Source: an uncultured Actinomycetes bacterium (lineage in GTDB: Bacteria > Actinomycetota > UBA4738 > HRBIN12). From it: DNA of 64,000 nucleotides. Of this stretch, positions 1 to 49,494 are shown in pieces; the first letter of the stretch is position 1, and each line of letters begins with the position of its first letter. The translations under genes were made by a program, and so were the position numbers. Below the pieces are notes generated by a model that worked only from the letters and a program-made list of their open reading frames with translations, was not told where the DNA came from and did not search any database. The stretch is from assembly GCA_963704725.1 (NCBI GenBank), contig OY969934.1, positions 576,001 through 640,000 on the forward strand, in the 5' to 3' direction.

Positions 1-176
1 TCGTAGGTGACGATCGTCCGGTCGGGGAAGTGCGAGGAGAGCGTGGCGAACCCCGCGGCGCCCATCGGCGACCCGATCAGGAGCAGGACGGGCTCGTCGC
101 CGGACTCGCCGCCGCGGACGTCGTAGGCCAGCACGGCGCCCGGCACGTCCAGTGTGTGAGTCGTCGGTTCGTTCAT
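1..176 (-). CDS. alpha/beta hydrolase, N-terminal part (runs off window)
   Basis: Manual translation from ATG 176: MNEPTTHTLDVPGAVLAYDVRGG...PVLLLIGSPMGAAGFATLSSHFPDRTIVTYD, typical a/b-hydrolase start; GGAAGG upstream. Confidence 0.75.
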   Translation of the reverse strand, partial: MNEPTTHTLDVPGAVLAYDVRGGESGDEPVLLLIGSPMGAAGFATLSSHFPDRTIVTY

Positions 177-299
177 GAGGCCTTCCCCCGTTGGTCTCCG
201 AGTCTCCTCGATCAGACCCGCCGATTCTGCCGGATTCATCGGTCGGCCCTGCGGGATCCGCGTCTTCGACCGTCACGAAGCGTGGCGAGCTGATAAGGT

Positions 300-328
300 T
301 TGGACGATTGTCCAGGTCGAACGTCCAA
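300..328. promoter_or_regulatory. putative TetR operator (nested inverted repeats)
   Basis: TTGGACG(300-306)...CGTCCAA(322-328) enclosing TGGAC-gatt-GTCCA, directly upstream of tetR in a divergent intergenic region. Confidence 0.55.
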
Positions 329-343
329 GGCGGGAGGACCCCG

Positions 344-955
344 GTGAGCCCCACCGACGTCGAGGGTGTGGACACGCGTCGTCGTCTGACCGAAGCGACG
401 ATCGAGGTGATCGCGGAGCGCGGCTGGGGCGGCGTCTCGACCCGCGCCGTCGCCGAGAGGGCCGGCGTCAACCCGGGCGTCGTCCACTATCACTTCGCCT
501 CGATCGACGAGCTGCGACGCCGTGCGGTGGTCGACGCCCTCGGCGTCCTGGAGGACGCGGTCATGGACGCCTCGAGCGATCGCACACCTCGCGAGATCCT
601 CGAGGCGGCGGCGGAGGCGACCGTCGGGCTCGGGCGCTCGGAGAGGCTGCTGCTGTTCGAGGCGCTGCCTCCGGCGGGTCGCGATCCGCAGATGCGGGAG
701 GAGCTCGGGGAGCTCCTGATCCGAGGTCGCGGCATCCTGGCCGCCCGGATCCGCGCCCACCACCCGCAGCCGCTCGGTGACCCGGACGTGCTGGCCGGCG
801 TGATCGCCGCGGCCCTCGACGGCCTGCTCCTTCACCTGCTGGTCGAGCCGGGCCTCGACGTCGGCGCCCACGTCCGACCGCTGCTGGCCCTCCTCGGCCC
901 CGAGATGACCGCCACCCCCGAGACGGCCCCGGAGCCGGAGGAGGCCACCCGATGA
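344..955 (+). CDS. TetR/AcrR family regulator
   Basis: HTH STRAVAERAGVNPGVVHYHF; GTG 344 after GGAGG. Confidence 0.9.
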   Translation: MSPTDVEGVDTRRRLTEATIEVIAERGWGGVSTRAVAERAGVNPGVVHYHFASIDELRRRAVVDALGVLEDAVMDASSDRTPREILEAAAEATVGLGRSERLLLFEALPPAGRDPQMREELGELLIRGRGILAARIRAHHPQPLGDPDVLAGVIAAALDGLLLHLLVEPGLDVGAHVRPLLALLGPEMTATPETAPEPEEATR

Positions 956-1683
956 CCGCTCGCGATACCGACCACTCGGTCGCCACCCTGACCGGCGTCT
1001 CGAAGACCTTCGGTGAGGGCTCGACCGCCGTGCACGCCCTGGCCGACGTCGACATGGATCTCGCACGCGGCGAGCTGGCGGTGATCCTGGGTCCCTCCGG
1101 CTCGGGGAAGACCACGCTCCTGAACCTCGTCGGCGGCATCCAGCGGCCGTCGGCCGGGCGCATCGTCATCGCGGGCCGCGATCTGACCGATCTCGACGGC
1201 CGGGCGCTGACCGACGTGCGACGCGAGGTCATCGGGTTCGTGTTCCAGTTCTTCAACCTCGTCCCGACGCTGACCGCGGCCGAGAACGTCGCGCTGATCG
1301 CCGAGCTGACGGACCACGGTCGCGTCGACGAGCGGGTGGATCGCGTGCTCGCCGAGGTCGGCCTCCAGGATCGAGGGGATCACTTCCCGGGTCAGCTGTC
1401 GGGCGGGGAGCAGCAGCGGGTCGCCATCGCCCGGGCGCTGGTGAAGGAGCCGCCGCTGCTGCTGTGCGACGAGCCGACCGGTGCGCTGGACATCGAGACG
1501 GGCCGCACGATCCTCGCGTTGCTCGATCGCCAAGCGCGGCAGTCGGGACGAACGGTGCTCATCGTCACGCACAACGCGGCCATCGGCACGCTGGCCGACC
1601 GCGTCATCCGTCTGCGCAACGGCCGCGTCGACGGCATCCATCGCAACGAGCGGCCGGCACCGGTCGATCAGGTGGACTGGTGA
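952..1683 (+). CDS. ABC transporter ATP-binding protein (LolD/MacB-like)
   Basis: Walker A GPSGSGKT, LSGGEQQR signature, LLLCDEPT. Confidence 0.95.
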   Translation: MTARDTDHSVATLTGVSKTFGEGSTAVHALADVDMDLARGELAVILGPSGSGKTTLLNLVGGIQRPSAGRIVIAGRDLTDLDGRALTDVRREVIGFVFQFFNLVPTLTAAENVALIAELTDHGRVDERVDRVLAEVGLQDRGDHFPGQLSGGEQQRVAIARALVKEPPLLLCDEPTGALDIETGRTILALLDRQARQSGRTVLIVTHNAAIGTLADRVIRLRNGRVDGIHRNERPAPVDQVDW

Positions 1684-4052
1684 TGCGCGGGCGCGTCCTG
1701 CGCACCAAGCTGCGTCGGGACATCGGCCGGCAGTGGCCGCAGTTCGGAGCCATCGTCGTGCTGATCACGCTGGGTGTGGCGCTGTTCGCCGCGTCGTACG
1801 ACGCGTTCCGCAACCTCGAGGCGTCCTACGCGAACCTGCACGTTCAGCTGCGTTCGGCGGACCTGTGGATCACCGGTGGCGACACCGAGCGGATCGCCGC
1901 GACGGCCTCGGCCACCGACGGCGTCGCCGACGTCGTGACCCGGATCCAGGCCGATGTGCCGCTGCGGTTCGACGGCGTCGACAAGCTCCGGGGCCGGATC
2001 ATCGGCGTCCCCGCCGATCATCAGCCGGCGGTGTGCGGCCTGCTGCTGCTGCACGGCGGCTACGAGGTCGCCGGGCCGGAGGCCCTCGTGGAGCGCCACA
2101 CGTTCGACCATTTCGGGCTGGCCCTGGGCGATCGCGTCGACGTGCTGCCGGCCGGGTCGAGCGCCTGGATGCCGCTGCGGGTGACCGGGGACGCCGAGTC
2201 CGCCGAGTACATCTGGCCGGCTCGAAGCCGCCAAGACTCCATCACCCTGCCCGACGACTTCGGCGTGCTGTTCGTGTCCGAGGACCTCGCCGCGTCCATC
2301 GTCCAGGGTGGGCCGAACCAGGTCCTCGTCCGTCTCACCGCCGGCGCGGCCCCCGACGTGGTGGACCGGCTGCGCAGCGAGGCCACGTCGCTCGGCGCCA
2401 CCGAGGTGCTGACCCGCGCCCAGCAGGCATCGAACGCGCTCCTGCAGGAGGACATCGACGGCTTCAGCGAGATGTCCGCTGCGTTCCCGTTGCTGTTCCT
2501 GACCGCGGCGATGATGGCCGCCTACGTGCTGGTGACCAGACGCGTGCTGAGCGAGCGCAGCCTCATCGGCATGATGCTGGCGAGCGGCCTGCACCGACGC
2601 CAGGTGTTGCGCCACTACCTCGGCTTCGGGCTCACCGCCGGCGCGATCGGGTCGGTGGTCGGAGTCGTCGCCGGCACCGCCGCGGCCCGGACGATGACGC
2701 GGCTGTACCTGGGGGCCATCGACCTGCCGAACCAGGTCGCCGTCTACGACATCCGCGCGGCGACGTTGATCGCCGGGCTCGCCTTCGGTGTCGTCGTCGG
2801 GGGGTTGTCCGCCGCCGCCCCCGCGTTGCTCGCCTCTCGGATCGAGCCGGCCGAGGCCATGCGCGGCCTCGTCCCGGCGACCGGCGGCCGCCGGAGCCTG
2901 CTCGAGCGGCTGGTCCCGCCTTTTCGGCGGCTTCCCACCCGGTGGCGGCTGGTCCTGCGCGGGATCGGCCGGAACCGGCGGCGGACCTCCTACACGATCC
3001 TGGGCGTGACCCTGTCGATGCTGTTGATCCTCGTGTCGTGGTCGATGTTCGACACGATGGACGGCCTGTTGAACACGCAGTTCCAGCGTGTCCAGCTGCA
3101 GGATGCGCGCGTGGGGTTCACGGGTCCGCAGGACGCAGGGGTGCTCGAACGGCTCCGCGCCGTCGTAGGGGTGTCCGAGGTCGAGCCGGTCGTCACGGCC
3201 TCCGCGGCACTGCGCGGGCCCGCGGGCAGCTACGGGTCGGTGCTGCTGGCGCTGCCCAGCAACACCGACATGCACGGGTTCGTGCTGACCGGTGGCTCGG
3301 AGACGACGCTCTCCGAGGACGGCGTGCTCGTCGGGGTCGGCGCGGAGGGCTTCATCGGCGTGCCGGTGGGAGGGACGGCCACGCTCGACGTCCCGGACCT
3401 CGGTCTGAGCCTCCCCGTCAGGATCGACGGCTACCTCGACGAGCCACTCGGCACCTTCGTCTACGCGCCCCTGGATGCGGTGCGCCGGATGGCCGGGCAT
3501 CCGCTCCCGATCACCTCCGCGATGCTGCGCTTCAGCGACGGCGCGGATCGGGATGCGATCAGGCGCTCGGTGCAGGGCCTCGACATCGTGGCCTCGTACG
3601 AGGACGCGAGATCGCTGGTGGCCCTCTTCGAGGATTACACGGGCCTGTTCTACGGCTTCGTCGGCGCGATGCTCGTCCTCGGGGCCCTGATGGCGTTCGC
3701 GATCATGTTCACGACGATGTCGGTCAACATCGTGGAGCGGTCCCGAGAGGTGGCCACGCTTCGGGCGAACGGCGTGCGACTCCGCCAGATCTCGCGGCTG
3801 ATCTCGTCCGAGAACCTGATCATGACGCTCATGGGCATCGTGCCGGGGTTGATCGCCGGCGTGCTCGGGGGCCGTGCCCTGATGGCTTCGTACTCCTCGG
3901 ACCTCTTCCGGCTGAACCTCGTCGTACGAGCCCAGACGCTCGTCCTGGCGGGAGCGGCGATCGTCGTCGTGGCGCTCGTGTCGCAATGGCCGTCGCTGCG
4001 AGCGGTACGCCGGCTCGACATCGCCTCCGTGGTGCGCGAGCGCGACACGTGA
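1683..4052 (+). CDS. ABC transporter permease, FtsX/MacB-type (duplicated)
   Basis: ATG overlaps ATPase stop; two MacB-PCD/FtsX halves, ERSREVATLRANG motif, multiple TM segments. Confidence 0.9.
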   Translation: MRGRVLRTKLRRDIGRQWPQFGAIVVLITLGVALFAASYDAFRNLEASYANLHVQLRSADLWITGGDTERIAATASATDGVADVVTRIQADVPLRFDGVDKLRGRIIGVPADHQPAVCGLLLLHGGYEVAGPEALVERHTFDHFGLALGDRVDVLPAGSSAWMPLRVTGDAESAEYIWPARSRQDSITLPDDFGVLFVSEDLAASIVQGGPNQVLVRLTAGAAPDVVDRLRSEATSLGATEVLTRAQQASNALLQEDIDGFSEMSAAFPLLFLTAAMMAAYVLVTRRVLSERSLIGMMLASGLHRRQVLRHYLGFGLTAGAIGSVVGVVAGTAAARTMTRLYLGAIDLPNQVAVYDIRAATLIAGLAFGVVVGGLSAAAPALLASRIEPAEAMRGLVPATGGRRSLLERLVPPFRRLPTRWRLVLRGIGRNRRRTSYTILGVTLSMLLILVSWSMFDTMDGLLNTQFQRVQLQDARVGFTGPQDAGVLERLRAVVGVSEVEPVVTASAALRGPAGSYGSVLLALPSNTDMHGFVLTGGSETTLSEDGVLVGVGAEGFIGVPVGGTATLDVPDLGLSLPVRIDGYLDEPLGTFVYAPLDAVRRMAGHPLPITSAMLRFSDGADRDAIRRSVQGLDIVASYEDARSLVALFEDYTGLFYGFVGAMLVLGALMAFAIMFTTMSVNIVERSREVATLRANGVRLRQISRLISSENLIMTLMGIVPGLIAGVLGGRALMASYSSDLFRLNLVVRAQTLVLAGAAIVVVALVSQWPSLRAVRRLDIASVVRERDT

Positions 4053-4228
4053 GCCGCCGAGGTCCGCGGCGTGAGCGGTTTGGGAACACTCCCGAACCGT
4101 GAGGCGGACCAACACGGCTTTCGGGCGCAGCTGGAGGATGTGGTCGAGCGGCGCCCTCCTGCATTCGGCGTCCGCGCGCGGCGGCAGCCGAACAGTCGGG
4201 TTGCGGTGTGCGATGCCCAGCTTCTTCC

Positions 4229-5851
4229 CTAGATCAGCCGGTAGAACGCATGTGCCACCTGTCCGCTGTCGAACGCCAGGAAGAGCGTGTAGCACCCTCT
4301 CTGTCTGGGCGTCCGCCACACGTAGATGAAGCGCGTGACCCGGCCGTAGGCGAGACCGGTGCCGACGGTCGGCACGGTCTGGGTCGCCCCGTCAGGGTCG
4401 ACGGAGAACGCCGAACAGCTCGATGGCTTGGAGGTCACGGTGCGCACGGCTGCGAGGGACGACGTGTACGTGCTGTGCGCATCAGTGAGCTGGAATCGTA
4501 CGATCGAAGGCCACCCGGCCAGGGCGACGTTCACGTTGGGAGGCGAGGTCAGCGGGAAGAGGAACCGGATGTCGTATCCCACCCGATAGGTCACCGTGAC
4601 GGGGTCGGCGACGTTGCCGGACGAGTCGCTCGACTCCACGCGGAAGACCTTCTCCCCGACCGAGGATGTGTCGATCGGCGTCCCGTTCGGCACGGTGCCG
4701 CGACACACGGGCGCGGGATCGTCGTCGTCGATGCACGAGTAGTCGGCATCGACGATCGAGTTGAGGACATAGGTCTGATCTGCGGGAGCGAGGACGGTGA
4801 TCTTCGGCGCGGTCGAGACCCCCCAGTCGCTCGGCACCTTGTCGCTCGACACGCCGGCTATCGCCGTCTGGTTCGACCCGTCGGGGTTCATCAGGACGAC
4901 GGCGGGGCCGAGGCTCCCGTTCGCGAGGGGGGTCCGGTAGCTCAGGTACACGATCTTCGTTCCGTCCGGGGAGTAGATGGGATCGAAATCCGCGTACCCG
5001 TCGTTCGTGACGGCATGCTGGCCGCTGCCGTCCGCGTTCATCGCCCAGATCTCTCCCGCGCCCACCTCATCGACCTGGTCCCGCGTCCAGACGATCTTCG
5101 AACCGTCGGGTGAGAAGTCCGGCTGGCGGTCCACGACCGACGCGGCGGTGTCGGTCAGCCGGGTCTGGCCGGATCCACTCACGTCCATGACGTAGATCTC
5201 GTAGTTGTTGGGAGGTGGCGTGCCCGGCAAGCGAGAGATCTTGGTGAACGCGATCTTGGTGCCGTCGGGCGAGAACGTCGGCTCGACGTCGGCGATCCCG
5301 TAGGGATCGGGGAGATCCGGGTTCACCGTGAGGGGCGTTTGCCCCGAGCCATCGGCGTTCATGATCCACAGATCGATCCCTCGTTCGAACACGATCTTCG
5401 TTCCGTCCGGGGAGATCGCCGGGTTGGAGTCGTTGAGATCGTCGTCCGTAAGCCGCACCTTGTTGGATCCGTCGGCGTCCATGATCCAGATCTCGCCATC
5501 GGTCAAGCTGAGCTCCGGGCACGCGTGGGTCCAGTAGGCGATCTTCTTCCCGTCGCCGGAGAACGTCGGGTCACGGTCGCAGATCGAGTTGTCCGTCAGC
5601 TTCGTCGAGTTCCCTCCGTTCGCGTTCATGACGTAGATCTCGAAGTCACCGTCATCTCCCACGACCGCGATCTTCCCGTTCGGTCCGGGGTACGTCGCCG
5701 TAGCCGGCTCCGCCGTCGAAATGACCATCGTGGCGATGAGAGCGGCAGCGGCCAGGATCGAGAGACGTCCCCGCGAGATCCGGCGCCCGAACCCGATGCC
5801 CACCGTCGAGGCCCGGCCGCGCTGAATCCGGAACCGGCGTGCCCGTTCCAT
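4229..5851 (-). CDS. secreted TolB-like (PD40) beta-propeller with C-terminal PxKF-like domain
   Basis: ATG 5851 after GGAGGTG; signal peptide; five D-x-x-P-x-x-S-[PG]-DG-x-KI repeats; C-terminal FLFPLTSPPNVNVALAGWPSIVRFQLTDA. Confidence 0.85.
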   Translation of the reverse strand: MERARRFRIQRGRASTVGIGFGRRISRGRLSILAAAALIATMVISTAEPATATYPGPNGKIAVVGDDGDFEIYVMNANGGNSTKLTDNSICDRDPTFSGDGKKIAYWTHACPELSLTDGEIWIMDADGSNKVRLTDDDLNDSNPAISPDGTKIVFERGIDLWIMNADGSGQTPLTVNPDLPDPYGIADVEPTFSPDGTKIAFTKISRLPGTPPPNNYEIYVMDVSGSGQTRLTDTAASVVDRQPDFSPDGSKIVWTRDQVDEVGAGEIWAMNADGSGQHAVTNDGYADFDPIYSPDGTKIVYLSYRTPLANGSLGPAVVLMNPDGSNQTAIAGVSSDKVPSDWGVSTAPKITVLAPADQTYVLNSIVDADYSCIDDDDPAPVCRGTVPNGTPIDTSSVGEKVFRVESSDSSGNVADPVTVTYRVGYDIRFLFPLTSPPNVNVALAGWPSIVRFQLTDAHSTYTSSLAAVRTVTSKPSSCSAFSVDPDGATQTVPTVGTGLAYGRVTRFIYVWRTPRQRGCYTLFLAFDSGQVAHAFYRLI

Positions 5852-5908
5852 CGCCCACCTCCCATACTCGGCGTTCCCGAGCCCTGTTCGGCTCCGATCG
5901 ATCCCCGC

Positions 5909-5945
5909 AGGGTGGCGTGGGACCTTCGGGCAGGCTTCGGGCAGG
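5909..5945 (-). promoter_or_regulatory. SARP-like direct-repeat box plus -10 (site A)
   Basis: Minus strand CCTGCCCGAAG-CCTGCCCGAAG-N9-CACCCT, repeat ends 73 nt before start 5851. Confidence 0.7.
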
Positions 5946-6056
5946 GTCAAGGGGCGGCGCCACCTCGCGGGTCAGGATCCCTCCGCCTCGGTCGACCGGG
6001 TGGGACCGCCCGCCTGGAGTGGACGAGACAGGGGACAGACGTTTCGGGAACGGCGA

Positions 6057-6245
6057 TCATGGCTCACGGCCCTCATCCCCGCCGTTCGGGCCTATGGCGG
6101 TGGCGAGGAACTCGAGCAGCTCCGCCGGGGAAGCGAAGGGGCGCTCCGTTCCGCTGGCGACGTGTCGCACCAAGCCCCGGATCTCGGGATCGATCCGGTC
6201 TCCTCCCGTGCCCGGTGTCCACAGCCTCACGATGAACGTCTCCAC
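6057..6245 (-). CDS. small hypothetical protein (62 aa, METFIVRLW...RGLVRHVASG...F)
   Basis: Compact ORF directly downstream of the BTAD regulator with its own direct-repeat promoter. Confidence 0.7.
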   Translation of the reverse strand: METFIVRLWTPGTGGDRIDPEIRGLVRHVASGTERPFASPAELLEFLATAIGPNGGDEGREP

Positions 6246-6293
6246 GAGATCCTCTCGAGCACGGGCGAGGCTGGCGTCTGGTTCGCGGTTCGC

Positions 6294-6330
6294 ATCGTGC
6301 CGGCATGGATTCGGGTGTCCTTCGGGCAGG
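6294..6330 (-). promoter_or_regulatory. SARP-like direct-repeat box plus -10 (site C)
   Basis: Minus strand CCTGCCCGAAG-GACACCCGAAT-N9-CACGAT upstream of start 6245. Confidence 0.6.
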
Positions 6331-6341
6331 GTTGCGGCGGA

Positions 6342-9300
6342 CTACCGGGTCGGAACGGGAAACGCAAGGGCCTCGATGCCGAGCTCGGTCATCTTGGCCG
6401 TGTATGCGCGGTAGGCGCGTCTGGCCTCGCCGTGTCGTCCCGCCGCGGTGAGGCTGTCGATCAGCGCCAGGTGGGCGCGTTCGTCGAAGGTGTCTCGCTC
6501 CAAGATCCGGAGGAGGTACCGAGAGGCGGCGTCGTGGTCCCCTCGGGCGATGGAGTCCCTCGCGAGGGTTCGGGCCACTCCCACGTAGGCGTTCCGAGCT
6601 TCCTCGCGAAGCGCGATCGTCCATTCCTCGTACGGGTCTTCCGGCAGGAAGTCACCTGCATACGCGGCCTCGGCGGCGACCAGGCGGGCGGCGGCGTCCG
6701 GTGCTCGGTCGCGCCCCGACCGTAACCCTGCCGTGGCGTCCGGTAGGAACGATTCCACGTCCACCCAGACGTTCGCCAGGTTCAGACGGACGGTGTCGCG
6801 GTCGGCCGTCACGAATCGTTCCGCGTCGAACAGCTTGTCCGGATCGAGCACGCTTCGGAGCGTGGACAGGGCCACCGACAGCCGGCTCGACGTCTTCGTC
6901 GGATCCTCGTCGGGCCACATCGCCTCGATGAGCTCCTCGCGGTGCACGGGCTGGCCGCGCCTGGCCACCAGGAACTTCAGGAGCGAGCGCGCCTTGCGCG
7001 ATTGCCAATCCGTGAGCGGGACGGGGGCGCCGGAGCGGAGGACACGGAACCCTCCGAGGGAGTGGATGGCCACGGGGGGAACCTCCCGCGCCGCGACGGC
7101 TGCGCGGAGATCGCCCGCCGCCGCCGCGTATCGCCGCAGGCCGAGCTCCTGGAAGCGCCGTTCGGCCCGCTCAGCGAGCGCCAGCGATCCCTCGCCCGTC
7201 GTCAATCGAGCCAGGGCCAGATCCACGCGAGCCTCCCCGATGGGACCGCCCAGCTCCCGCCAGATCGCGCGGGCCTCTTCCAGCCGGTGCCGCTCCTGCT
7301 CGGGATGGAGAGACGAGAGCGCTTGAAGCTCGAGCGACTCGGCGACGGCGGCCCGGTCCCGGCGGCTCCTCGCCACCGTCGCTGCCTCGTCGGCCCGGGA
7401 CGCCGCTTCCGCACGATCGTTCCGAGCGAGCGCACCCCACCCGGCCGCCAGCAGCGCCCCCTGCTGCGACAGCACGGCGCCGTAGCCCACCGCTCGCTCG
7501 GCCAGCCGGGCCGCCTCCTCAGGCTCCTCTTCCGCCAGGATCCTCGCCAGTCCCGACAGGGCGGGTACCAAACCCTGGACGTCGCCCGATCCCTCCGACA
7601 CCGTCAGCGTCTCTTCGTACGCGGCGCGCGCCAGCGCCAGATCCCCGCGTTCCCTGAAGACGTCGCCGAGCAGCCCGAGCGGATAGCCGATCATCCGCGA
7701 GCCCAGCCGCTGGTAGATGGCCTTCGCGGCCTCGAGATCCGCCACCGCCTCGTCCATCCGACCCATCCGGAACAGCGCGTCGCCGCGATTGGTCAGGGAG
7801 AGGGCCTGGAACCAAGCGTACCCGGCCAGCTCGGCCAGCTCGATCGCCACGCCCAACTCGTCGAGGGCCTGCTCGAAGTAGCTCTCCTCGATCAAGCGAG
7901 AGCCGCGATTGCCGCGGATCCGGATGATCTGGAGCGCGTCGCCCGCCCGTTCGGCGTGATCGAGGGCCCGCAGGTAATGCGCATCGTTCGCTCGGCGATC
8001 GCTGTCGACGGCCGCCACCATCGCCAGCACGGTGTGTGCGATGGCGAGCGCGCGGTCGTCGTGCAGCCCTCGGGCGATGTCGAACGCACGTTGCGCGAGT
8101 GCGCGGCACTGGTCCATCTCGCCGCGAAGCCATCGCACGGACGCCGTCCACGCAAGGAGCGTCGCTCGGTCGGCCGAGTCCTCACCCACAGGCAAGCCAC
8201 GCGTGTACGCGGCCAGGGCCTCGTCCAGGTCGCCGCGGAGATGATGGATGAGCCCCATCCGCCAGGCCACGGCTGGGTCCAGGGGGCCCTCGCCCGCGAT
8301 CCGCCGGTAGCACTCGAGCGCCCCGTCCCAGTTCCCCCGGATCTGATGTGCCTCTCCCACCACCTGCTCCACGGCCGCCGACCGCATCGCCTCGGGGAGC
8401 CGAGCGGCCGCCGCCACCACCGCCCCCGCGGCGCCGGAGGCAAGGAGCGCGGAGCCATGCTCGGCCAGCACTCGCGACGCCCCCGAGAGATCGTCGATCT
8501 CGCACAGGCACGACAGCGCTTCGGCCGCTCGTCCGTTCGCTTCGAACCACAGGGCCGCTGTTTCGAAGAGTCCGGCCCGTGCCTGGGGTTCCAGGGGCAA
8601 GCGCTCCAAGACGAACTCGCGGACCAACGGGCTCAGCTGGTACCAGCCCTCCTCCCCCCGGGGCTCGACGAAGAGGCCTCGCCGATCCAGGCCGATCAGC
8701 AGCTCGCGCGCGCCATCGATGCCGAGCGCCTGGGCGAGCCCATCGGTGAACCGCTCCAGGGGCGCGACGGTGCGGACCAGAGCGGTGACCTCCGGAGCCT
8801 CACGGGCGAAGACCTCCTCCGCCAGATAGGAGAAGACGGGACCTCCCGGCCGCCCGACCCGCTCCAGCTCCCGGGGCCGCTCCTTCGCCGGCACCGTCCG
8901 AAGTGCCTCCGCCGCGAGTCGCACCGCCACGGGCCATCCCTCCGTGACCTTGCGCATCGGCACCACGAGGTCGAGCGATCCCTCGCCCAGGAGGCGACGA
9001 AGGACCTCGGAGGTCTCGTGGTCATCGAAGGCCAACGCGGCCCCGGTGATCTCCGACACGTCCCCGCGCCCACGCATGCGTTCGACGGAGAACGGGGGAT
9101 TCTCTCGCGATGACAGCACGATGTGCAGGCGAGGGGGAGCCTGACGGCACAGACCCTCGATCAGCGCCATCGATGGGTCATCGGCTCGCACCTCGTGCAC
9201 GTCGTCGAGGATCAGCGTCAGGTCCGATCGAAGGTGCTCCTGAAGGGCGCCACACAGCAGCGCGGCGAAGGCCGGAGCCCGGACGGCCCCATCCCTCTCG

Positions 9301-9690
9301 GCCTCGGGGCCGCGGGCGGAGTCCCGGCCGAGGGACACATCGCGGGTCAGGCCGGGCACTCGCAGGCGGAGCGCCTCGAGCAGGCCGGCGGCGAGCGCGT
9401 CGAGGTCACGATCCTCAGCGGTGAGCGTGTACCAGGCGCCGTTACATCGCTCGACCCATTGCCCCAAGAGCGTCGACTTCCCGTAGCCGGCCCCCGCGAC
9501 GACGATGGTCAGCCGAGCCTCGGCCGCTTCGCGCAGCCGGCTCTCCAGGGCCGCTCGGGGGACGACGTGTTGCCTGGGTCGCGGGCGGAAAGACCTTCGT
9601 GCCGAGCAGCGCCGGCGGCGGCGAGACCGAGGTCCCCGTCGTCTCGAGATCTCGGGGACCGCCTTTGCGGCTTCGATCGTCTCGCACCAT
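6342..9690 (-). CDS. MalT-like STAND NTPase/TPR transcriptional regulator with C-terminal wHTH + BTAD; frameshift near 9585
   Basis: P-loop AGAGYGKST, LILDD, TPR helices, LGGFRV...REELIEAMWPD...LSTLRSVL wHTH, BTAD end. N-terminal LLGTKVFPP lies in the 9442-9690 frame. Confidence 0.85.
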
Positions 9691-9816
9691 GCGCGTTGAC
9701 CCCCGGGAGGTGCAAATGATAGCCCGCCGCCGTTGCGGCCCACCCGGGGTGACCGGCCGATGGATCGGCCCTCATCCGATTCCGTCCGGACCGCCACGAT
9801 CTCGATGCGCCTTCAC

Positions 9817-9853
9817 CCCGCGCGAAGCCTGCGCGAAGGTGGTGCGTCAGTCT
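9817..9853 (+). promoter_or_regulatory. SARP-like direct-repeat box plus -10 (site B)
   Basis: CCCGCGCGAAG-CCTGCGCGAAG-N9-CAGTCT, repeat ends 71 nt before ATG 9909. Confidence 0.7.
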
Positions 9854-9908
9854 CCCGAGAAGTACCGGGTCAGAGAGGCTCGGGAGCTCAGGAAGGGGAG
9901 GTGGAACG

Positions 9909-10406
9909 ATGGAACGAGCACGCAGACCCTGGGTCCAGGCGGCAGTGATCTTGACCACGGCAAGCGCGGTGGGGTGGGCGCTCGTGGCGGCTCCGGCGGG
10001 CGCGAGCTCCGGGCTCACCAGGAAGGACGTGCGGAAGATCGCCACCAGGGTCTTCCACGCGAACGCGGCGGCGCTCGAGGATACGTGCCCCTCCGGTACG
10101 GAAGCGGCCGCCGGCAGCTGCGTCGAGACGACCACGCGGGGGCAGGCCTCCTGGGTGAACGCGAACAGGAACTGTGGGGACCTCGGCCGTCGACTTCCGA
10201 CGCCGGGAGAGCTCGTGGCGGCGTTCAGCACCCCGGGCATCACACCCGCGACCGAGATCACCTCCGACATCTACATCTCCGACGGCAGCGGGTCGACGTT
10301 CACGCAGATCATGGCGGTGGTCACCGCGAGCAGCAGCATCGGCGGTCAAGCCGATCTCAGCACGGTGGCCAGCTACCGGTGTGTGGCGCCGATGTCGAAT
10401 GCCTGA
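9909..10406 (+). CDS. secreted protein with probable C-type-lectin/FGE-like fold
   Basis: GGAGGTG RBS, signal peptide, CVE...W..A...C...GRRLPT..EL...YRCV pattern. Confidence 0.7.
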   Translation: MERARRPWVQAAVILTTASAVGWALVAAPAGASSGLTRKDVRKIATRVFHANAAALEDTCPSGTEAAAGSCVETTTRGQASWVNANRNCGDLGRRLPTPGELVAAFSTPGITPATEITSDIYISDGSGSTFTQIMAVVTASSSIGGQADLSTVASYRCVAPMSNA

Positions 10407-11487
10407 ATCGCGACCCGGCGGCGGGCCGAGGCGCTTCGCGGCCGCCGCCGGGGCCGCGCTGGTCCTCGTGTGGGCCGGGGTATCGTCCGTCCCCGCCTCG
10501 GCCTCGCTTCCCGTGGCGTTCCCCGACGGCCAGTGGCACGGGACCTCGCTGTACGGCGGCGCCATCAGCAAGGCGGACGTCTCTGCCACGGCGTTCGGCG
10601 ATGTGACGTTCGACCTGACCGTGTCGAACGGCGAGGTGACCGACGGCACCCTGAGCGTCGGCATGTCTGCCACCGGCACGTCGTCCACGGCGACCGCGGA
10701 TCTCACGATGACGGGAACGCTCTCGATGGGCGGCACCGCCGCGACCGTCGAGTTCGCCGGCCCCGTGACCGTGAAAGGGTCGGCGTCGTCCGGGGCGTTC
10801 ACGGTCCCGATCGAGTTCACCGCGACCGATCACGGGACGTTCTCGCCCTCGTACGTGACCTGCAATCAGGTCACGGGGGATCTCGCGGTCCAGGCGCGGC
10901 ACGTCCAGCAGGCGGCGGGCTTCGCGACCACCGTCACGGGGCCTTTCGTGGCGGTCCGGACCGCCGGCGGGGCCGGGGCCGTGGACGAGGTGATGGGCAA
11001 GTACCACTCGCTGAACGACGCGATGCTCGACGCGCTCGGGGGCGATCCCTCACCGGAACAGGTCATCGAGCTGGCCCAGCAGTACGAGGCGCTGGCCGCT
11101 GAGCTTGCCTCGATCGGCGCGTGTGAGTCGCTTCCCGCCGGGTTCGAGTCGGGCCTTTCGGACAAGATGATCGGCGCGTTCTTCCAGGACCTGCTGCAGA
11201 AGGCCCTGGATCATCCGGAGATGTACTCGGCGCAGGCGTTGTTGTCGTTGCTCGGATCGGGCCTGCGGATGGACGCCGTCGGCAACGACGTCGCCGGCTC
11301 GGGACCCTACCAGGCGTTCGCGAAGAACCTGCTGGCGGAGTTCGAGGCCACCCTGGAGTCGAAGCTCCAGGCGGCGGCCAAGGCCGGCGACTCGCAGACC
11401 GTCCTGGACATCCTCGTCGGTGCCCAGCAGTACGGCCTCGACGAGCTGGCGAACGAGGCGCAGGGCCTGCTGGCCACCGGAGGATGA
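10399..11487 (+). CDS. secreted hypothetical protein (beta-rich N-half, helical C-half)
   Basis: ATG overlaps upstream stop; signal peptide; Thr/Gly beta-strand region followed by helical domain. Confidence 0.75.
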   Translation: MPESRPGGGPRRFAAAAGAALVLVWAGVSSVPASASLPVAFPDGQWHGTSLYGGAISKADVSATAFGDVTFDLTVSNGEVTDGTLSVGMSATGTSSTATADLTMTGTLSMGGTAATVEFAGPVTVKGSASSGAFTVPIEFTATDHGTFSPSYVTCNQVTGDLAVQARHVQQAAGFATTVTGPFVAVRTAGGAGAVDEVMGKYHSLNDAMLDALGGDPSPEQVIELAQQYEALAAELASIGACESLPAGFESGLSDKMIGAFFQDLLQKALDHPEMYSAQALLSLLGSGLRMDAVGNDVAGSGPYQAFAKNLLAEFEATLESKLQAAAKAGDSQTVLDILVGAQQYGLDELANEAQGLLATGG

Positions 11488-11969
11488 TGGCGATGCGAGT
11501 TGGGATCAGGAGGCTGACCGCGCTCATGACCGTGGCGGCGGCGCTCGCCACGGCCGCCGGATGCACGGCGGCAGCCGACGGTGCCTCGAGCGGCGACGGT
11601 GGTTCGGACGGGAGGACGACCGGAGGCGGGGGATCCACGGAGTCGAGCTCGGCGATCTCCGCGCCCGGGGTGGACTCGGTGGTGGAGCTTCGTGGGCCGG
11701 CCGAGACCGGGGCCGGGTCGATCCCGACGTTCGAATGGTCCGCCGTCGACGGCGCGGGAGCGTATCGGCTCGTGGTGAAGGACGCCCAGGGAAACGCCAC
11801 GTGGGCGTGGGAGGGAACCGACACCGCGATCGCGTTGGGGGCCGTGCCCGACCGTGAGGAGGGCGACGGTGGTCCGATCCTGACCGAGGGATCGTTCTGG
11901 AGCGTGGTGGCGCTCGACGGCGAAGGTCACGTCGTCGCCGTCAGCGAACTACGTCCCGTCTCTCCCTGA
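11484..11969 (+). CDS. putative lipoprotein with Ig/Fn3-like domain
   Basis: ATGA overlap; lipobox-like AAGC; PTFEWSAVDGAGAYRLVV...FWSVVALD. Confidence 0.75.
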   Translation: MMAMRVGIRRLTALMTVAAALATAAGCTAAADGASSGDGGSDGRTTGGGGSTESSSAISAPGVDSVVELRGPAETGAGSIPTFEWSAVDGAGAYRLVVKDAQGNATWAWEGTDTAIALGAVPDREEGDGGPILTEGSFWSVVALDGEGHVVAVSELRPVSP

Positions 11970-12364
11970 GGAGTCGTGGAGAGGGACATGCCGATGGGTG
12001 CGGGCATCGTATCGCGTCGCTCGACCGGGGCCTGTGCCGTTCCCAGCTGCCTTCACCGACATCAGCCCGGACGACGACGGGCCGCTGCCCGGGATCTCCC
12101 CAGGCCGTTCTTCGCGTACTTCGACCACGATGCGGGCGGGCGCGTTGCAGGCGATCGACATCGGGTCCGTTGGGCGCGGCGTATGGCGCGTCATGTTGGC
12201 CGCGTAGTGGGGCGCCCATGGAACGCCACAGTCCAACGGCTGATCGTCGACGGCCTACGCGGAGCGTGAAGTCGTTCGTTGCACTCCGCGTGATGCGAGC
12301 TCATCACGCTCGGAACACGGGAGGGGGAGGCCCGCTCCTTCATGGCACCAGAACCTGTTGCTCG

Positions 12365-12459
12365 TAGCGGAGGCGGACGGGAATCGAACCCGCCTGGGAG
12401 CTCTCGCCCCCACACCGGTTTTGAAGACCGGGGGGCCCACCAGGCGCCCTGACGCCTCC
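12365..12459 (-). tRNA. selC: tRNA-Sec (anticodon UCA)
   Basis: GGAGGCG acceptor pairing CGCCTCC, anticodon arm CCGGT-CTTCAAA-ACCGG, long variable arm, GGGTTCGATTCCC T arm; ~95 nt; ends G-CTA (no encoded CCA). Confidence 0.92.
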
Positions 12460-12569
12460 GCTCCGCAGGATATCCGGCTCGACCTTAGCTCCGGCACGGG
12501 TTCGGCTTGGTCGGCGGTTATCCCGTGCCTTCCTACGCTTGGCCCGTCACCGATGGAGGAGGGGCCGAG

Positions 12570-14056: not shown

Positions 14057-15256
14057 TCAGGGGACGGCCGGCGGGCGGCGGTACTCGAAGTGCATGCCGT
14101 CGGGCAGGATGAACGTCCCGCCCCAGATGAACCCCCAGTCCTCGAACACCCGGACCATCCGCGGGTCCTGGTTCGGCTCGGCGCCGAAGGGGTTCTGCGG
14201 CACGTTGATGTCGAGGGCGATGCCCCAGGAGTGGTGGGAGAGGCCGGCGCTCCGGATCCGGTTGATGTGCCGTGGGGCGAAGCACCCCGAGTAGCTCGTG
14301 ATCGTGTCCTGCAGGCCGAGGTCGACGATCTCGTGGATCGCCCCGCGGATCTGCGGGAACAGCGCGACGTTGCACGTCACCGAGCCGAGCAGCGCCACGT
14401 GGCGCGTGGCGATGTGCGTTCGGACCCATGCCGGGTCGAGCGTGAGGAACCCCGGCAGACCCGGCCGCGGCTTGGCGGCGAACTCGCCGAACAGCTCCTT
14501 GATCGCGACCGGCGGCAGCACGGCGTCGCTCTGGCGGAAGTACGGCGTGTCGCCGGGGGCCCGGACGCGCACGAGCGTTCCGGGAGGCAGGACCTGCCGG
14601 ACGGCCTTGGCCAGCCGGCGGACGGTGGGCTCGTCCTCGGGCACGAGCAGGGCGTAGCGATTGTGGGTCACGCCGATCCGCCGCCCGAGGTCTCGCGAGA
14701 CGAGGAGCTCGTGCGCGCCGACGAGCTCGTCCGGCAGGATCGCCGCAACCTCGATCCGCACCTCGCCGAACTGCAGGACCGCGCCCGGTCCGAGCCCCCG
14801 CAGCTTGGCGCTCGACTCGCCGAGGATCCCCTGCCCCTCCTCGAGCGCCACGGTGACGCCGCGATCGGCGGGCGGAAGGAACGGGGCGTACGCGCGGGGT
14901 CCCACGGCGGCGACCTCGAGCGGGATGGCGAACGTCCGCGGTGGGTCGTCCACGACCTCGCCGCTCTCGTCGAACGAGCGCGTCAGCCACGTGTTGTCGC
15001 TCGCCACGACCACCGCGCGGCGGATCTCGGGCATCGCGGCGACGGCCTCCCCGAAGCCGCGCGGCAGCCCGCCGGGCGTCCAGACGAGGAACGTGTCGGG
15101 GCTCTCCGGGGTGGTCGCGAACGTCGGGGGCGACGCGACGCCCGGCCCGTCGATCGTCACCGCCGCCGTGCCCTGGATCGCGAGGGTGAGCGCCGTGCCG
15201 GCGACGAACCCCACGAGGGCCGCGCCGGTCACGCCGCCGGCGCGCCGGAGGCTCAT
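14057..15256 (-). CDS. M15 family metallopeptidase (D,D-carboxypeptidase-like)
   Basis: SHHSWGIALDIN and DGMHFEY zinc-ligand motifs; N-terminal signal/TM; ATG overlaps anti-sigma stop. Confidence 0.85.
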   Translation of the reverse strand: MSLRRAGGVTGAALVGFVAGTALTLAIQGTAAVTIDGPGVASPPTFATTPESPDTFLVWTPGGLPRGFGEAVAAMPEIRRAVVVASDNTWLTRSFDESGEVVDDPPRTFAIPLEVAAVGPRAYAPFLPPADRGVTVALEEGQGILGESSAKLRGLGPGAVLQFGEVRIEVAAILPDELVGAHELLVSRDLGRRIGVTHNRYALLVPEDEPTVRRLAKAVRQVLPPGTLVRVRAPGDTPYFRQSDAVLPPVAIKELFGEFAAKPRPGLPGFLTLDPAWVRTHIATRHVALLGSVTCNVALFPQIRGAIHEIVDLGLQDTITSYSGCFAPRHINRIRSAGLSHHSWGIALDINVPQNPFGAEPNQDPRMVRVFEDWGFIWGGTFILPDGMHFEYRRPPAVP

Positions 15257-17223
15257 CCCGCCCCCGCTGGAGCGCTCGGGGTTCCGGGGATCGACGCCGC
15301 GATCGCCGCCAGCTCGTCCAGGCCGAGCCCGGGCGCGTCGAGCGACCGGTAGAGGCCGTTCGAGACCCACTCGAGCAGCGAGCGGCCGGGGGTCCACCGG
15401 CCCGGCGAGCCGGCGACCTCGACGGCCGACTGGCGGGCGGCGCTCGCCGGTGGCAGCTCGGCGGCGGCCTCCAGGTGCAGGCGGATCGCGCCGGGCCCCG
15501 CGTCCGCCTCGGCGTCTCGGAAGTACATCGTCACGCCCGGCACGTCGTCGATCCCCACGAGCTCCACGCTGGCCAGGGTGAAGCCCGCCGGGAGCCGTTC
15601 GGGCGCCGCGACGGCGAACGGGACGGCCAGGGCCGCCTCCTCCAACGAGACGCGTTCGACGACGGCGCCGTCGGTGGCGTGGGTCCGCCACGACTCCGGC
15701 ATCGCAAGGCCGACCACCGGCAGGGCGGCCGCCGCCTCCAGGAGCTTGGCGCGGGGCAGGTTCGACTCGAGGTACAGGTCGGTACCGGCGGCGTGGATCG
15801 ACAGCAGCCGGCCGTGCCAAGGGGTGGCCGGTTCGTAGTACGCGACGCCGCGGCCCACCGGCACCTCCTCGGCCCGCAGGCTCACGGCGCCGAACGGGGC
15901 GTCGCCCGTCCACGACCGCGTCTCGCCGAGCCGCAGGAACGAGAGCCCGTCGGCGTAGGTCACGACCGCCTGGCCGCCCTCCGGGCTCTCCGGGATCACC
16001 GCCCGGTACAGGTCCAGCCCGCCCAGCTCGGCCGGCGCCAGCGGGTCGAACCCGGCCCGAGCCGCGACCTCGGCGGGCGGCACGTGCTCGGCGCCCTGGT
16101 CCTCGGTCCGATCGGTGGCCGGGATCCGGAACACCGAGGCCGCAGGCCGCGAAAGGCTCACGGAGAGCGCCGCCACCTCGAAGACCGGCGCGCGGGAGGG
16201 CTCCTCGGGCAGCCCGAACCGCTCGGCCCACGCATCGCGCTCGTGGCCCGCCGCCGGGTAGACCTCCCACCGCAGGGGGAACCAGCTCCCCTCGTCGAGC
16301 CAGATGCGGACGCGGTCCTTGGAGAAGAACGGCCGCCACTCGCCGCCGATCGACAGGAACGGGAAGAGCGACTGCGCGCGCTCGAACGGCACCTGGACGA
16401 TCACGGCGGGACGACCCAGGACGGTGTCGCGTCCGATCACGGTGACGGCCGCCGGCTCGGCCAGCGCGGTCAGCGGCAGCACCAGGTCGGTGGGGGCCGG
16501 CGCCCTCGAGGAGAACGGCATCCGGTTGCGGACGGAGGTCACCCGCTGGGGGCATCGGGCGGCGGGGCACAGGTCCGGCCCGGACGAGTACCAGTGGTCG
16601 CGGTCGACGATCAGCCGGAGGTCGGTGGGCGTCGCCGGAGACGGGTAGATCGTCCGGTCCTCGACGTCGAGGCGGAAGCGCTCGGGGGCCCGGAACCAGA
16701 CGTGCATCGAGAGCTCGCGGCGCGGGACGTCGGGGGAGAGGTGGAGCTCGCTGATCGAGAACGTGGCCTCGTACGCCGTCAGGCCGGCCGCGGCGGCGGC
16801 CACGTCCCGGCTGATCCGTTCGGCGGCCAGCGCCGAGGTGCGTTCGGGCGCGTCGTTGGACCACGGCCCGCCGACCACGAGGCTCCCCACGAGGAGGCCG
16901 GCCACGAGCGCCGCGGCGGCGGGGGTGAGGGACCGCATCCGTGGGCGGCTGCGGGGCAGGCGCATCGGACGGACGATCCGCAGGCCGGGCCGGCGGGCGC
17001 CGGTCTCCGCCTCGACCGCGGACATGATGGGCTCGACCAGGTCGGGGATGGCGGGGGCGACCTCGAAGCGGACGCGTTCGCGCAGCCGGTACGCGCCGCG
17101 CTCGAACGCCCGGCACTCGTCGCAGCCCTCGAGGTGGTGCTCGAGCGCGACGAGCTGGCGGTCGGGGATCCGCTCGCCGTCCAGACGCTCGGAGATCAGG
17201 CGCTCGGCCTGCTCATGATCCAC
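15253..17223 (-). CDS. zf-HC2 anti-sigma factor with large extracytoplasmic LolA/MucB-like region
   Basis: HLEGCDEC (HxxxCxxC), single TM, VWFRAPERFRLDV...IWLDEGSWFPLR. Confidence 0.8.
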   Translation of the reverse strand: MDHEQAERLISERLDGERIPDRQLVALEHHLEGCDECRAFERGAYRLRERVRFEVAPAIPDLVEPIMSAVEAETGARRPGLRIVRPMRLPRSRPRMRSLTPAAAALVAGLLVGSLVVGGPWSNDAPERTSALAAERISRDVAAAAAGLTAYEATFSISELHLSPDVPRRELSMHVWFRAPERFRLDVEDRTIYPSPATPTDLRLIVDRDHWYSSGPDLCPAARCPQRVTSVRNRMPFSSRAPAPTDLVLPLTALAEPAAVTVIGRDTVLGRPAVIVQVPFERAQSLFPFLSIGGEWRPFFSKDRVRIWLDEGSWFPLRWEVYPAAGHERDAWAERFGLPEEPSRAPVFEVAALSVSLSRPAASVFRIPATDRTEDQGAEHVPPAEVAARAGFDPLAPAELGGLDLYRAVIPESPEGGQAVVTYADGLSFLRLGETRSWTGDAPFGAVSLRAEEVPVGRGVAYYEPATPWHGRLLSIHAAGTDLYLESNLPRAKLLEAAAALPVVGLAMPESWRTHATDGAVVERVSLEEAALAVPFAVAAPERLPAGFTLASVELVGIDDVPGVTMYFRDAEADAGPGAIRLHLEAAAELPPASAARQSAVEVAGSPGRWTPGRSLLEWVSNGLYRSLDAPGLGLDELAAIAASIPGTPSAPAGAG

Positions 17224-17737
17224 CGGCGTCCTCCTCGAGGGCGAGCGCGCCCATCATCGCCTTGCGTCCCCGGTGCATCCGACTCTTCACGGTGCCGACG
17301 CGCACCCCGAGCACGTCGGCCGCCTCCTGGTACGACAGCCCGAACACCTCGATCAGCAGGAACGGCTCGCGGTGCTCCTCCGAGACCGCGGCGAGCGCCG
17401 TCTGGAGCTCGAGGCGTGCCTGGGGGTCGGTCGGCCCGACCGGCGGCGGCGGCTCCTTGTCCAGGTGGACCGTCCGCGATCGGATCGCGTCCATGGCGCA
17501 GTTCCGGGCGATCCGGAAGAGCCAGCTCGTGAACTTGGCGTCCCCCCGGAAGCTCCTCAGGAACCGGAAGGCCCGAAGGAACGCCTCCTGGGTGACGTCC
17601 TCTGCGAGAGCCCGGTCCCGCGTGAAGTGGTGCGCGAACCGCCACACGTCCGCCTGGTACTGCCGCACCAGGTCCTCGAACGCGCCGAGGTCCCCCTCAC
17701 GGGCGCGCGCGAGCGTCCGCGGGTCCGGGTCGTGCAC
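17213..17737 (-). CDS. ECF RNA polymerase sigma factor
   Basis: AEDVTQEAFLRA, FTSWLFRIARN, LSYQEAADVLGVRVGTVKSRMHRGR; GTG after GAGGAG. Confidence 0.92.
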   Translation of the reverse strand: MHDPDPRTLARAREGDLGAFEDLVRQYQADVWRFAHHFTRDRALAEDVTQEAFLRAFRFLRSFRGDAKFTSWLFRIARNCAMDAIRSRTVHLDKEPPPPVGPTDPQARLELQTALAAVSEEHREPFLLIEVFGLSYQEAADVLGVRVGTVKSRMHRGRKAMMGALALEEDAGGS

Positions 17738-17864
17738 CGAGCTCCTCTCGCTCCGGCCGGACAACCAAGCCTAGCCCCGCGGACCTGCCCTCGATACCCC
17801 GCTGAGCTGGGGGAACGGAGCGCCGGCCCGAGGGAGCCCTCCTCGTGATCGGACGGTCTCACCT

Positions 17865-49404: not shown

Positions 49405-49494
49405 CCGCCTCGCGGGCTCGCCGTCGCATCTCCCGAACCGATCGGAGCGCCGGCCCCCGCCGTCGCTCGCTCCCTTCCGTGACTCGCCGGCCCG

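Follow-up and report, generated by a model that had tools for sequence, protein, structure and literature searches.

The locus examined here lies in a 64,000-nt stretch of DNA from an uncultured Actinomycetes bacterium (contig OY969934.1, positions 576,001 to 640,000; this whole stretch is referred to as the window) and raises the question of which promoters are controlled by a large regulator in which a signal transduction ATPase with numerous domains (STAND) and a tetratricopeptide repeat (TPR) sensor precede the DNA-binding module of the Streptomyces antibiotic regulatory proteins (SARP). To our knowledge, SARP/AfsR regulators have been studied almost only in Streptomyces, as activators of antibiotic production. 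We consider it quite probable that the regulator is an AfsR-like transcriptional switch with a permuted domain order, predicted to drive local promoters via 11-bp direct repeats, and that the conserved core of the system would be the regulator and a small protein, much like AfsR and afsS. The elements involved are the following:

Regulator gene, 6342..9690, minus strand: MalT-type STAND ATPase, TPR sensor, C-terminal winged helix-turn-helix (wHTH) and bacterial transcriptional activation domain (BTAD), together a SARP module
62-aa protein gene, 6057..6245, minus strand: GTG start, GAGAGGA Shine-Dalgarno sequence; cytoplasmic-looking product
Site A, 5945-5909, minus strand: identical repeats CCTGCCCGAAG CCTGCCCGAAG, N9, CACCCT; predicted promoter of the propeller gene, ATG 5851
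Site C, 6330-6294, minus strand: CCTGCCCGAAG GACACCCGAAT, N9, CACGAT; predicted promoter of the 62-aa gene, GTG 6245
Site B, 9817-9853, plus strand: CCCGCGCGAAG CCTGCGCGAAG, N9, CAGTCT; predicted promoter of the exported three-gene operon, ATG 9909

The uninterrupted open reading frame (ORF) of the regulator, as listed, spans 6342-9797 on the minus strand and encodes 1151 residues, the last ~240 of which constitute the SARP module, which is thus not N-terminal. According to Pfam, the module comprises a Trans_reg_C domain (PF00486; residues 933-987, 34.4 bits vs. a cut-off of 26.2) and, right after this wHTH, BTAD (PF03704; residues 1012-1142, 39.7 bits vs. a cut-off of 22.1); no GerE/LuxR HTH was matched by Pfam. 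The last 252 residues align to residues 16-242 of EmbR (2fez; E 5.8e-7), covering the whole SARP domain, and partly to AfsR (8hvr; E 2.8e-4). The preceding sensor region is matched by TPR_12 (E 6.4e-18), TPR_1, TPR_16, and other TPR families at residues ~487-735 and beyond. The nucleotide-binding oligomerization domain (NOD) is of the MalT type: positions 9-402 of the NCBIfam MalT model match residues 71-469 with an E-value of 1.2e-43, the score of 149 bits being far below the equivalog cut-off of 537 bits, and the Pfam and NCBIfam searches gave no match to NB-ARC at E<=0.01 and a weak match to NPHP3_N. The predicted Walker A (GAGYGKST) and Walker B (LILDDVHE) motifs lie in the NOD, followed by the repeat sensor domains, as is characteristic of STAND proteins, and residues G32, G34, K35, and D127 are invariant across 17 sequences of the regulator family. 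Among the PADLOC defence-system models, the regulator matched a generic TPR model only (E 8.9e-8) and five neighbouring proteins matched none; assignment to the Avs-like anti-phage STAND proteins is not indicated. The domain order STAND-TPR-wHTH-BTAD, the reverse of that in AfsR, as claimed in the original prediction for this locus, is thus borne out by Pfam, NCBIfam, and the alignment to EmbR and AfsR. The likening to AfsR stands for the STAND, TPR, and SARP parts; it does not extend to the NOD, which is MalT-type rather than NB-ARC, and the ORF is frameshifted in the assembly, as discussed below.

Each of the three sites is composed of two 11-bp direct repeats (core GCCCGAAG), 9 nt, and a CANNNT hexamer, and each is oriented toward its downstream gene. 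The repeats end 73 nt (A), 64 nt (C), and 71 nt (B) from the start codon, and reading of the sequence confirmed this common architecture, including the previously noted range of 64-73 nt. Site C begins 11 nt past the regulator stop codon, and site B sits in the divergent region common to the regulator gene and the exported operon. If the hexamer is set at -12 to -7, the 8-mers of the window sites occupy -40 to -33 and -29 to -22. The proposed SARP/AfsR-type geometry, with two 11-bp repeats over the -35 position and a CANNNT -10 element, agrees with the available part of PMC10936776. No sigma-70 consensus promoter was found at positions 4000-12500 of the window, which fits activator-dependent promoters. 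Potential hairpins in the leaders at A and B are weak and not significant (z -1.6 and -1.4).

Exact matches to CCTGCSCGAAG occur four times in the 64 kb, all four inside sites A-C, and allowing <=2 mismatches gives 132 matches vs. 84.4 +/- 10 expected. The composite pattern CGAAG-N6-CGAAK-N9-CANNNT with <=1 mismatch occurs at three places, namely A, B, and C, vs. 0.08 expected (100 shuffles, maximum 1), a chance test that is partly circular, since the pattern was built from these very sites. With a position weight matrix (PWM) derived from the six half-sites, A reaches 33.1 bits, B 29.1 bits, and C 26.2 bits; the next-best matches reach 14.8 bits (overlapping C) and 12.9 bits, and the best dimer score in shuffled windows averages 14.0 bits with a maximum of 21.3 (20 shuffles). 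Thus, the PWM scan suggested earlier singles out A, B, and C in the 64-kb window and yields no fourth site there. A scan for 11-bp self-repeats (>=10/11 matches) that was given no motif returned A, B, and one coding-region match at 34748.

Sites A and B are alike beyond the repeats: their likeness is 74% in the promoter and continues through the Shine-Dalgarno sequence and the first codons (22/30 identical), and the upstream background is ~36%. This cassette (5800-5950 minus; 9812-9962 plus) includes a common leader motif GGCTCGGGA, the Shine-Dalgarno sequence GGGAGGTGG, and the first seven codons, and both the propeller and the 165-aa protein of the operon begin with MERARR. Site C has only the repeats and the hexamer in common with A and B. 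One of the promoters A and B probably originated as a copy of the other, duplicated together with its leader and start region.

The regulator belongs to a large family. A search of 5.8 billion proteins gave 1584 regulator matches at E<=1e-3 among the 8000 candidates scored; among the 120 matches listed, BTAD is present in 118, and most are of 1040-1130 aa with 51-62% identity. Automatic names in the family include 'MalT / DNA-binding SARP family' and 'BTAD domain-containing putative transcriptional regulator'. In species-representative genomes, a relative is encoded in at least 536 of 623 candidate stretches, and the relatives derive mostly from uncultured Thermoleophilia, Acidimicrobiia, Chloroflexota, and Gemmatimonadota. 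The family is therefore not rare and is already auto-annotated, and the claim of an undescribed module stands in one respect: a literature search, with subscription papers and supplements outside its scope, found no paper on the reversed STAND-TPR-SARP architecture.

For the comparative analysis, the best 80 matches of the at least 536 were collapsed into 66 related loci (982,610 nt), in 60 of which the regulator is essentially full length. Their hosts are Gaiellaceae, Solirubrobacterales, Acidimicrobiales, Nitriliruptorales, Micromonosporaceae, and one cultured Kibdelosporangium, as well as Chloroflexota and Gemmatimonadota bins outside the Actinomycetota. Period-11 direct repeats (>=10/11 matches) form 28 clusters in these loci, nine of which lie <=250 nt from the regulator ends, a zone that makes up 3.2% of the sequence (binomial p = 1e-7). 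With control periods of 7, 8, 10, 13, 14, 16, and 17 there are 0-3 near the regulator ends, and counts elsewhere are alike. The core found in the window recurs as CSCGAAK-N4-CSCGAAK at five places, four of them beside the regulator or the small gene of distant relatives (loci L025, L033, L052, and L039) and the fifth ~1 kb from the regulator (L056). L025, L033, and L052 carry three tandem units each, as does L039, where they face a divergent operon. The 18 half-sites from the window and these four loci all have C at position 2 and CGAA at positions 4-7; positions 1, 3, and 8 are almost invariant, and positions 9-11 are variable. In other relatives the repeat sequence differs by regulator lineage, with CCCGAAG, CTAAG/CTGAAG, and TTTAGCC variants.

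A homologue of the 62-aa protein was detected by tblastn with the window's proteins in 22 of the 66 loci, and a profile search of six-frame ORFs raised this to 36, with exactly one small gene per locus, adjoining the regulator; in 30 loci it lies just downstream of the regulator on the same strand. The downstream flank is shorter than 300 nt in 7 of the 66 loci, which bears on this count. Upstream of the small gene, the pattern AA[GC]-N8-AA[GC]-N9/10-NANNNT is present in 23 of 37 regions, compared with a mean of 0.055 in shuffled sequences (maximum 1) and with 52 of 13,880 generic 150-nt windows (0.37%). In 10 of these 23 regions, 6-8 nt separate the end of the hexamer from the start codon, i.e., the small gene is leaderless, and these leaderless genes fix the hexamer as the -10 element. 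In 10 further regions the hexamer ends 64-69 nt before the profile-based start, and an in-frame ATG follows ~6 nt past it where this was checked. Leaderless-type loci include L025 (11267-11321), L033 (11951-12004), and L052 (9398-9450), along with L044, L048, L054, L061, and L066. At positions that the pattern does not force, the -10 consensus is CAC(G/C)AT rather than TANNNT, the distal unit reads yT-AAG and the proximal unit yG-AAG/C, and a third unit is often found upstream. The gap between repeat and hexamer is 9 bp at sites A-C and 9-10 bp in the relatives.

Thus, the claimed link between the repeats and such regulators is upheld by the enrichment in the 66 loci, by the recurrence of the same core in relatives, and by the small-gene promoters. 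Because the small gene accompanies the regulator in 36 of 66 loci and its promoter keeps the same layout in 23 of 37 regions, the conserved core of the system appears to be the regulator together with the small protein, and the ancestral conserved target is predicted to be the ~60-aa gene directly downstream of the regulator. The original interpretation is partly supported; it was largely right, although its centre moves to this pair.

Variation in the repeats can be compared with that in the recognition helix. The residue preceding the RLSV motif is Ser in the window regulator and in those of L025, L033, L052, and L039, which are exactly the sources with CCCGAAG repeats. Elsewhere this residue is Asn, Lys, or Arg, mostly Asn with CTAAG, TTAAG, or CTGAAG units; among the three loci with Lys, L026 and L031 carry TTTAGCC units and L022 is without a downstream flank. 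L040 groups with L025, L033, and L052 (support 94/92), yet it has Asn and TTAAG/TTCAG units. In the alignment to 8hvr, it corresponds to the position four residues ahead of T88 of AfsR, a threonine that contacts a base according to the available part of PMC10936776. A single clade joining the window regulator with the other Ser-type regulators, as obtained with FastTree, was not upheld by IQ-TREE (fork support 43/86). The association of Ser at this position with CCCGAAG repeats is suggestive only.

The small protein represents a family for which every given name is 'hypothetical protein'. The 62-aa protein has no Pfam or NCBIfam family, and nothing meaningful appears in Pfam at E<=10. Its own family comprises 2336 representative clusters at E<=1e-3 (365 at E<=1e-10), nearly all members being stand-alone proteins of 59-90 aa, and its matches in the Atlas are likewise clusters of hypothetical proteins. 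The AlphaFold2 (AF2) model consists of three beta strands and one helix with a variable loop at residues 10-22 (mean predicted local distance difference test score, pLDDT, 77.4). A Foldseek search of the PDB with this model gave no match at E<=1e-3, the best one, a plant methyl-CpG-binding domain, being a non-match at E 0.17, and the profile matched only de novo designs among the PDB sequences (E ~0.005). Inspection of the 62-aa sequence reveals no internal repeat, so that AfsS-type repeats are not apparent, although AfsS itself was not aligned.

Together, these observations suggest the following mechanism. By analogy with AfsR and MalT, the SARP module would be kept inactive by the N-terminal STAND ATPase of the MalT type and by the TPR sensor until a signal to the TPR/NOD part and ATP binding release it from inhibition. 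Two SARP modules would then sit side by side on the two 11-bp repeats (GCCCGAAG and 3 variable bp), which would stand in for the -35 element ~9 nt upstream of the CANNNT -10 element, and RNA polymerase would be recruited to the small gene. In this genome the same switch would also drive the propeller gene and the three-gene exported operon. As for the role of the small protein, we tentatively suggest that, once induced, it might bind back to the TPR/NOD part or to the SARP module, thereby locking or resetting the switch, an idea that we hold to be rather doubtful. With such feedback, the pair would be a widespread two-gene signalling unit that parallels, inside the cell, the TPR-regulator/peptide pairs known from Firmicutes, in a loop controlling the cell-surface protein set; this extension, too, is rather unlikely.

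Several observations weigh against the AfsR-like switch. Since A and B are not independent, the window contains about two independent sites, not three, and the gap to the -10 element is 9-10 bp instead of the 8 bp of SARPs. Fourteen of the 37 small-gene promoters fall outside the strict pattern, and the small gene is missing in 23 of the 59 loci with enough flank. The link between Ser and the repeat motif is not strict, as L065 and L021 have Asn yet CCGAAG-like units, and its Fisher p of 6e-7 overstates independence, the deep branching of the Ser-type lineages being weakly supported. The module is predicted from sequence throughout, and that a C-terminal SARP module would dimerize and contact RNA polymerase as the N-terminal ones do is assumed by analogy.

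The regulator gene itself carries a further difficulty. Judged against the N-termini of homologues, the frame breaks near 9578-9590, after ...TKVFPP and before RPRQHVVPR, a point upstream of the Walker A motif. With ATG 9690 as the probable native start, the frameshift, one extra base, would lie ~36 codons into the gene, and the collection's gene call for the regulator (P0002, 1041 aa) begins past the Walker A motif/P-loop. Both facts count against a working switch, and the break could be either an assembly indel or a real lesion; if it is real, the switch in this strain may be dead. The regulator would then be a pseudogene and the three boxes out of use, a decaying remnant, and the G+C content at third codon positions (GC3), lower in this region than further right in the window, can be read in the same way. 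We regard this as a real possibility, albeit an unlikely one: the remaining 1,079 codons stay open and are conserved, the boxes show no damage, the frame is lost within a C/G-rich run, as is typical of assembly indel errors, and an in-frame GTG at 9797 would still yield a protein with all domains. The closest relatives, P0008 and P0010 (80-83% identity), contain or end in out-of-frame-looking stretches at other places, which hints at noisy assemblies and argues in the same direction.

Recognition of the repeats by another regulator was also considered. OmpR-family proteins all bind 11-bp-period direct repeats near -35, and the repeats could be sites of a different regulator of the OmpR/PhoB type (PhoP-, GlnR-, or MtrA-like) that is encoded elsewhere, their location beside this gene being incidental. 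The CCTAAC...TGAAAC units of L054 resemble what we take to be the GlnR-box consensus, and our scan covers 64 kb of this genome. However, period-11 repeats are enriched at the ends of this very regulator across 66 loci of several phyla, the repeat sequence tracks the regulator lineage, and the regulator has the sole Trans_reg_C domain among the 38 window ORFs scanned against Pfam, which together render this alternative very unlikely. We find it equally improbable that the regulator of the window binds the repeats as a repressor or dual regulator, keeping the small gene and the exported proteins silent, for example, until a signal arrives. The box overlaps the -35 position, where bound proteins can also block RNA polymerase, the divergent region that holds site B contains the regulator's own promoter as well, and the contacts of the C-terminal SARP module with RNA polymerase are the analogy noted above; nevertheless, BTAD is present, a -35 consensus is absent, the geometry is that of the activator afs box, and SARPs are reported as activators, with rare exceptions, in the available part of PMC10972967. 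That the shared architecture reflects a local duplication of a promoter cassette, devoid of regulatory meaning, is suggested by the likeness of A and B far past the repeats, including the first seven codons, but is extremely improbable, as C shares only the repeats and hexamer with them, and relatives from other classes and phyla, at 43-62% protein identity, have the same repeats and spacing, which would not be retained in neutral non-coding DNA.

In addition to the small gene, the AfsR-like switch would act through sites A and B on the following genes:

Propeller gene, 4229..5851, minus strand: predicted exported PD40/TolB-like beta-propeller of 540 aa (counted from ATG 5851), PxKF domain at the C-terminus
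165-aa protein gene, 9909..10406, plus strand: predicted exported protein with a signal-peptide-like N-terminus and four Cys residues, no family
362-aa protein gene, 10399..11487, plus strand: predicted exported protein of a narrow family
161-aa protein gene, 11484..11969, plus strand: probable lipoprotein with the N-terminus ...ALATAAGC..., start overlapping the preceding stop (ATGA), no family

The propeller protein matches PD40 in Pfam (E 1.7e-26) and, below the cut-off, the TolB propeller model of NCBIfam (5.8e-38); its PxKF domain scores 44.2 bits vs. a cut-off of 35, and a hydrophobic segment at its N-terminus was read from the translation. In the operon, the stop of the 165-aa gene overlaps the start of the next gene (ATGCCTGA). 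None of the three operon proteins has a Pfam or NCBIfam family, and nothing meaningful was found in Pfam at E<=10. The search with the 362-aa protein gave 12 matches including itself (11 relatives), all unnamed or 'hypothetical', and the Atlas offered no lead. In its AF2 model (mean pLDDT 78.9), eight long antiparallel strands precede a helical bundle; Foldseek against the PDB gave no match at E<=1e-3, the best one, an OmpA-type barrel, being a non-match (E 1.2e-3, template modelling score 0.23). One relative of this protein, P0375 (82% identity), and the regulator relative P0008 are each on a 26,225-nt contig, and the module is probably conserved in the close relative that carries them.

Two of the three promoters (A and B) would thus drive predicted exported proteins with signal-peptide or lipobox-like N-termini. 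The earlier view that the regulator activates secreted or surface proteins fits these two, but not the conserved partner, which is the cytoplasmic-looking 62-aa protein. Since tblastn detected no homologue of the propeller, of the three operon proteins, or of the next ORF in the 66 related loci, the propeller gene and the exported operon appear to be lineage-specific additions. Relatives have extra putative targets of their own, which seem to be envelope proteins in the few cases examined. In L039 (2700-2910 minus; an Acidimicrobiia bin), three CCCGAA units with a GATGCT hexamer face away from the regulator and precede a membrane-anchored ~220-aa protein and then an ABC transporter, and there is no small-protein gene; in L031 the small gene is preceded by the gene of an exported 236-aa protein, and L042 has a membrane protein as an extra putative target. 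The originally proposed role in sensing or inter-cell interaction fits these targets loosely.

The surroundings are those of an ordinary, actinobacterium-like chromosome (71.6% G+C), with genes for DnaB, DnaK-GrpE-DnaJ-HspR-ClpB, Tad-type secretion ATPases, and a class A penicillin-binding protein; no biosynthetic cluster was found nearby in the window. Directly after the exported operon there is a tRNA-Sec gene (12367-12459 minus; anticodon TCA; Rfam 75.1 bits), the only element returned by an Rfam scan of 4000-12500. Gene GC3 is 0.82-0.87 at positions 1-12000, which include the module, vs. mostly 0.92-0.96 at 15000-64000, and at 3-6 kb and 9-13.5 kb the G+C content falls to 0.66-0.70. Together with the adjacent tRNA gene, these differences could indicate an acquired segment. 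Elsewhere in the window there are an ECF-type (extracytoplasmic function) sigma factor gene followed by a 666-aa ORF that has no Pfam family (15256-17770 minus), and a gene for a 1102-aa HEAT-repeat protein beside a LuxR-type response regulator (46189-50400 minus); neither has a repeat box.

The output module and promoter logic of Streptomyces AfsR thus seem to be present here in a permuted, abundant protein. The family, with at least 536 relatives, spans poorly cultured soil Actinomycetota as well as Chloroflexota and Gemmatimonadota bins, and the paired small-protein family (2336 representative clusters) has no name, Pfam model, or fold match. Short conserved boxes near leaderless starts make the regulon predictable from sequence, and the system provides a natural experiment on whether a SARP module is functional at both ends of a STAND switch, as well as a way into what such regulators sense.

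Among known systems, the closest likeness is to AfsR-AfsS of Streptomyces coelicolor, which shares the STAND switch, the TPR sensor, and the SARP output. According to the available part of PMC10936776, the direct repeats of SARP promoters are spaced by 11 or 22 bp, and 8 bp lie between the 3' repeat and the -10 element; the afs box of afsS, made up of two 11-bp repeats, extends from -40 to -19, with contacts to the first 8 bp of each repeat, and the -10 element of afsS is CACTGT. The same part describes two SARP protomers side by side, which contact sigma region 4 and the polymerase core, and inhibition of the SARP domain by the NOD and TPR domains, relieved by ATP binding. The boxes in the window are built alike, with two 11-bp repeats over the -35 position, 8 conserved and 3 free bp, and a CANNNT -10 element. 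In both systems the primary target, a predicted one in the case of the window, is a gene of ~60 codons directly downstream of the regulator, and in the window site C stands between the regulator stop codon and the 62-aa gene. Where bioRxiv 10.64898/2026.09.02.748808 is available, AfsS orthologues are found by synteny directly downstream of afsR and are marked by internal sequence repeats; the small protein of the window lacks AfsS-type repeats and has a different predicted fold. AfsR has the order SARP-NOD-TPR and an NB-ARC NOD, whereas the regulator of the window has the order NOD-TPR-SARP and a MalT-type NOD. The hosts also differ, AfsR being from Streptomyces and the family described here mostly from uncultured bins, and no biosynthetic cluster adjoins the window regulator.

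ActII-ORF4, RedD, DnrI, and EmbR share the wHTH and BTAD module and bind heptameric or 11-bp-period direct repeats close to the -10 element, as given in the available parts of PMC10972967 and PMC10936776. The small SARPs, however, are proteins of ~300 aa that have neither STAND nor TPR domains, EmbR adds an FHA domain, none has a C-terminal module, and these regulators are pathway-specific or kinase-linked. MalT and the large ATP-binding LuxR-family regulators (LAL) resemble the window regulator in the N-terminal MalT-type NOD, the helical repeat sensor, and the C-terminal DNA-binding output, but this output is a GerE/LuxR HTH rather than an OmpR-type wHTH with BTAD, and MalT boxes differ from the direct repeats at -35 in the window. 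In the SARP-LAL hybrids PimR, SanG, and FilR, a SARP module is joined to an ATPase half of the LAL type (PMC10972967, available part); unlike in the window, their SARP module is N-terminal and their genes lie in antibiotic clusters. In the available parts of PMC10972967 and bioRxiv 10.64898/2026.09.02.748808, all four SARP classes (small, medium, large, and SARP-LAL) have the module at the N-terminus. The window regulator has the wHTH, the adjoining BTAD, and repeats at three adjacent promoters, as expected of a SARP, but not the N-terminal position of the module. Because its SARP module is C-terminal, its NOD is MalT-type, and its small protein has no AfsS-type repeats, the regulator falls outside the large SARPs as described.

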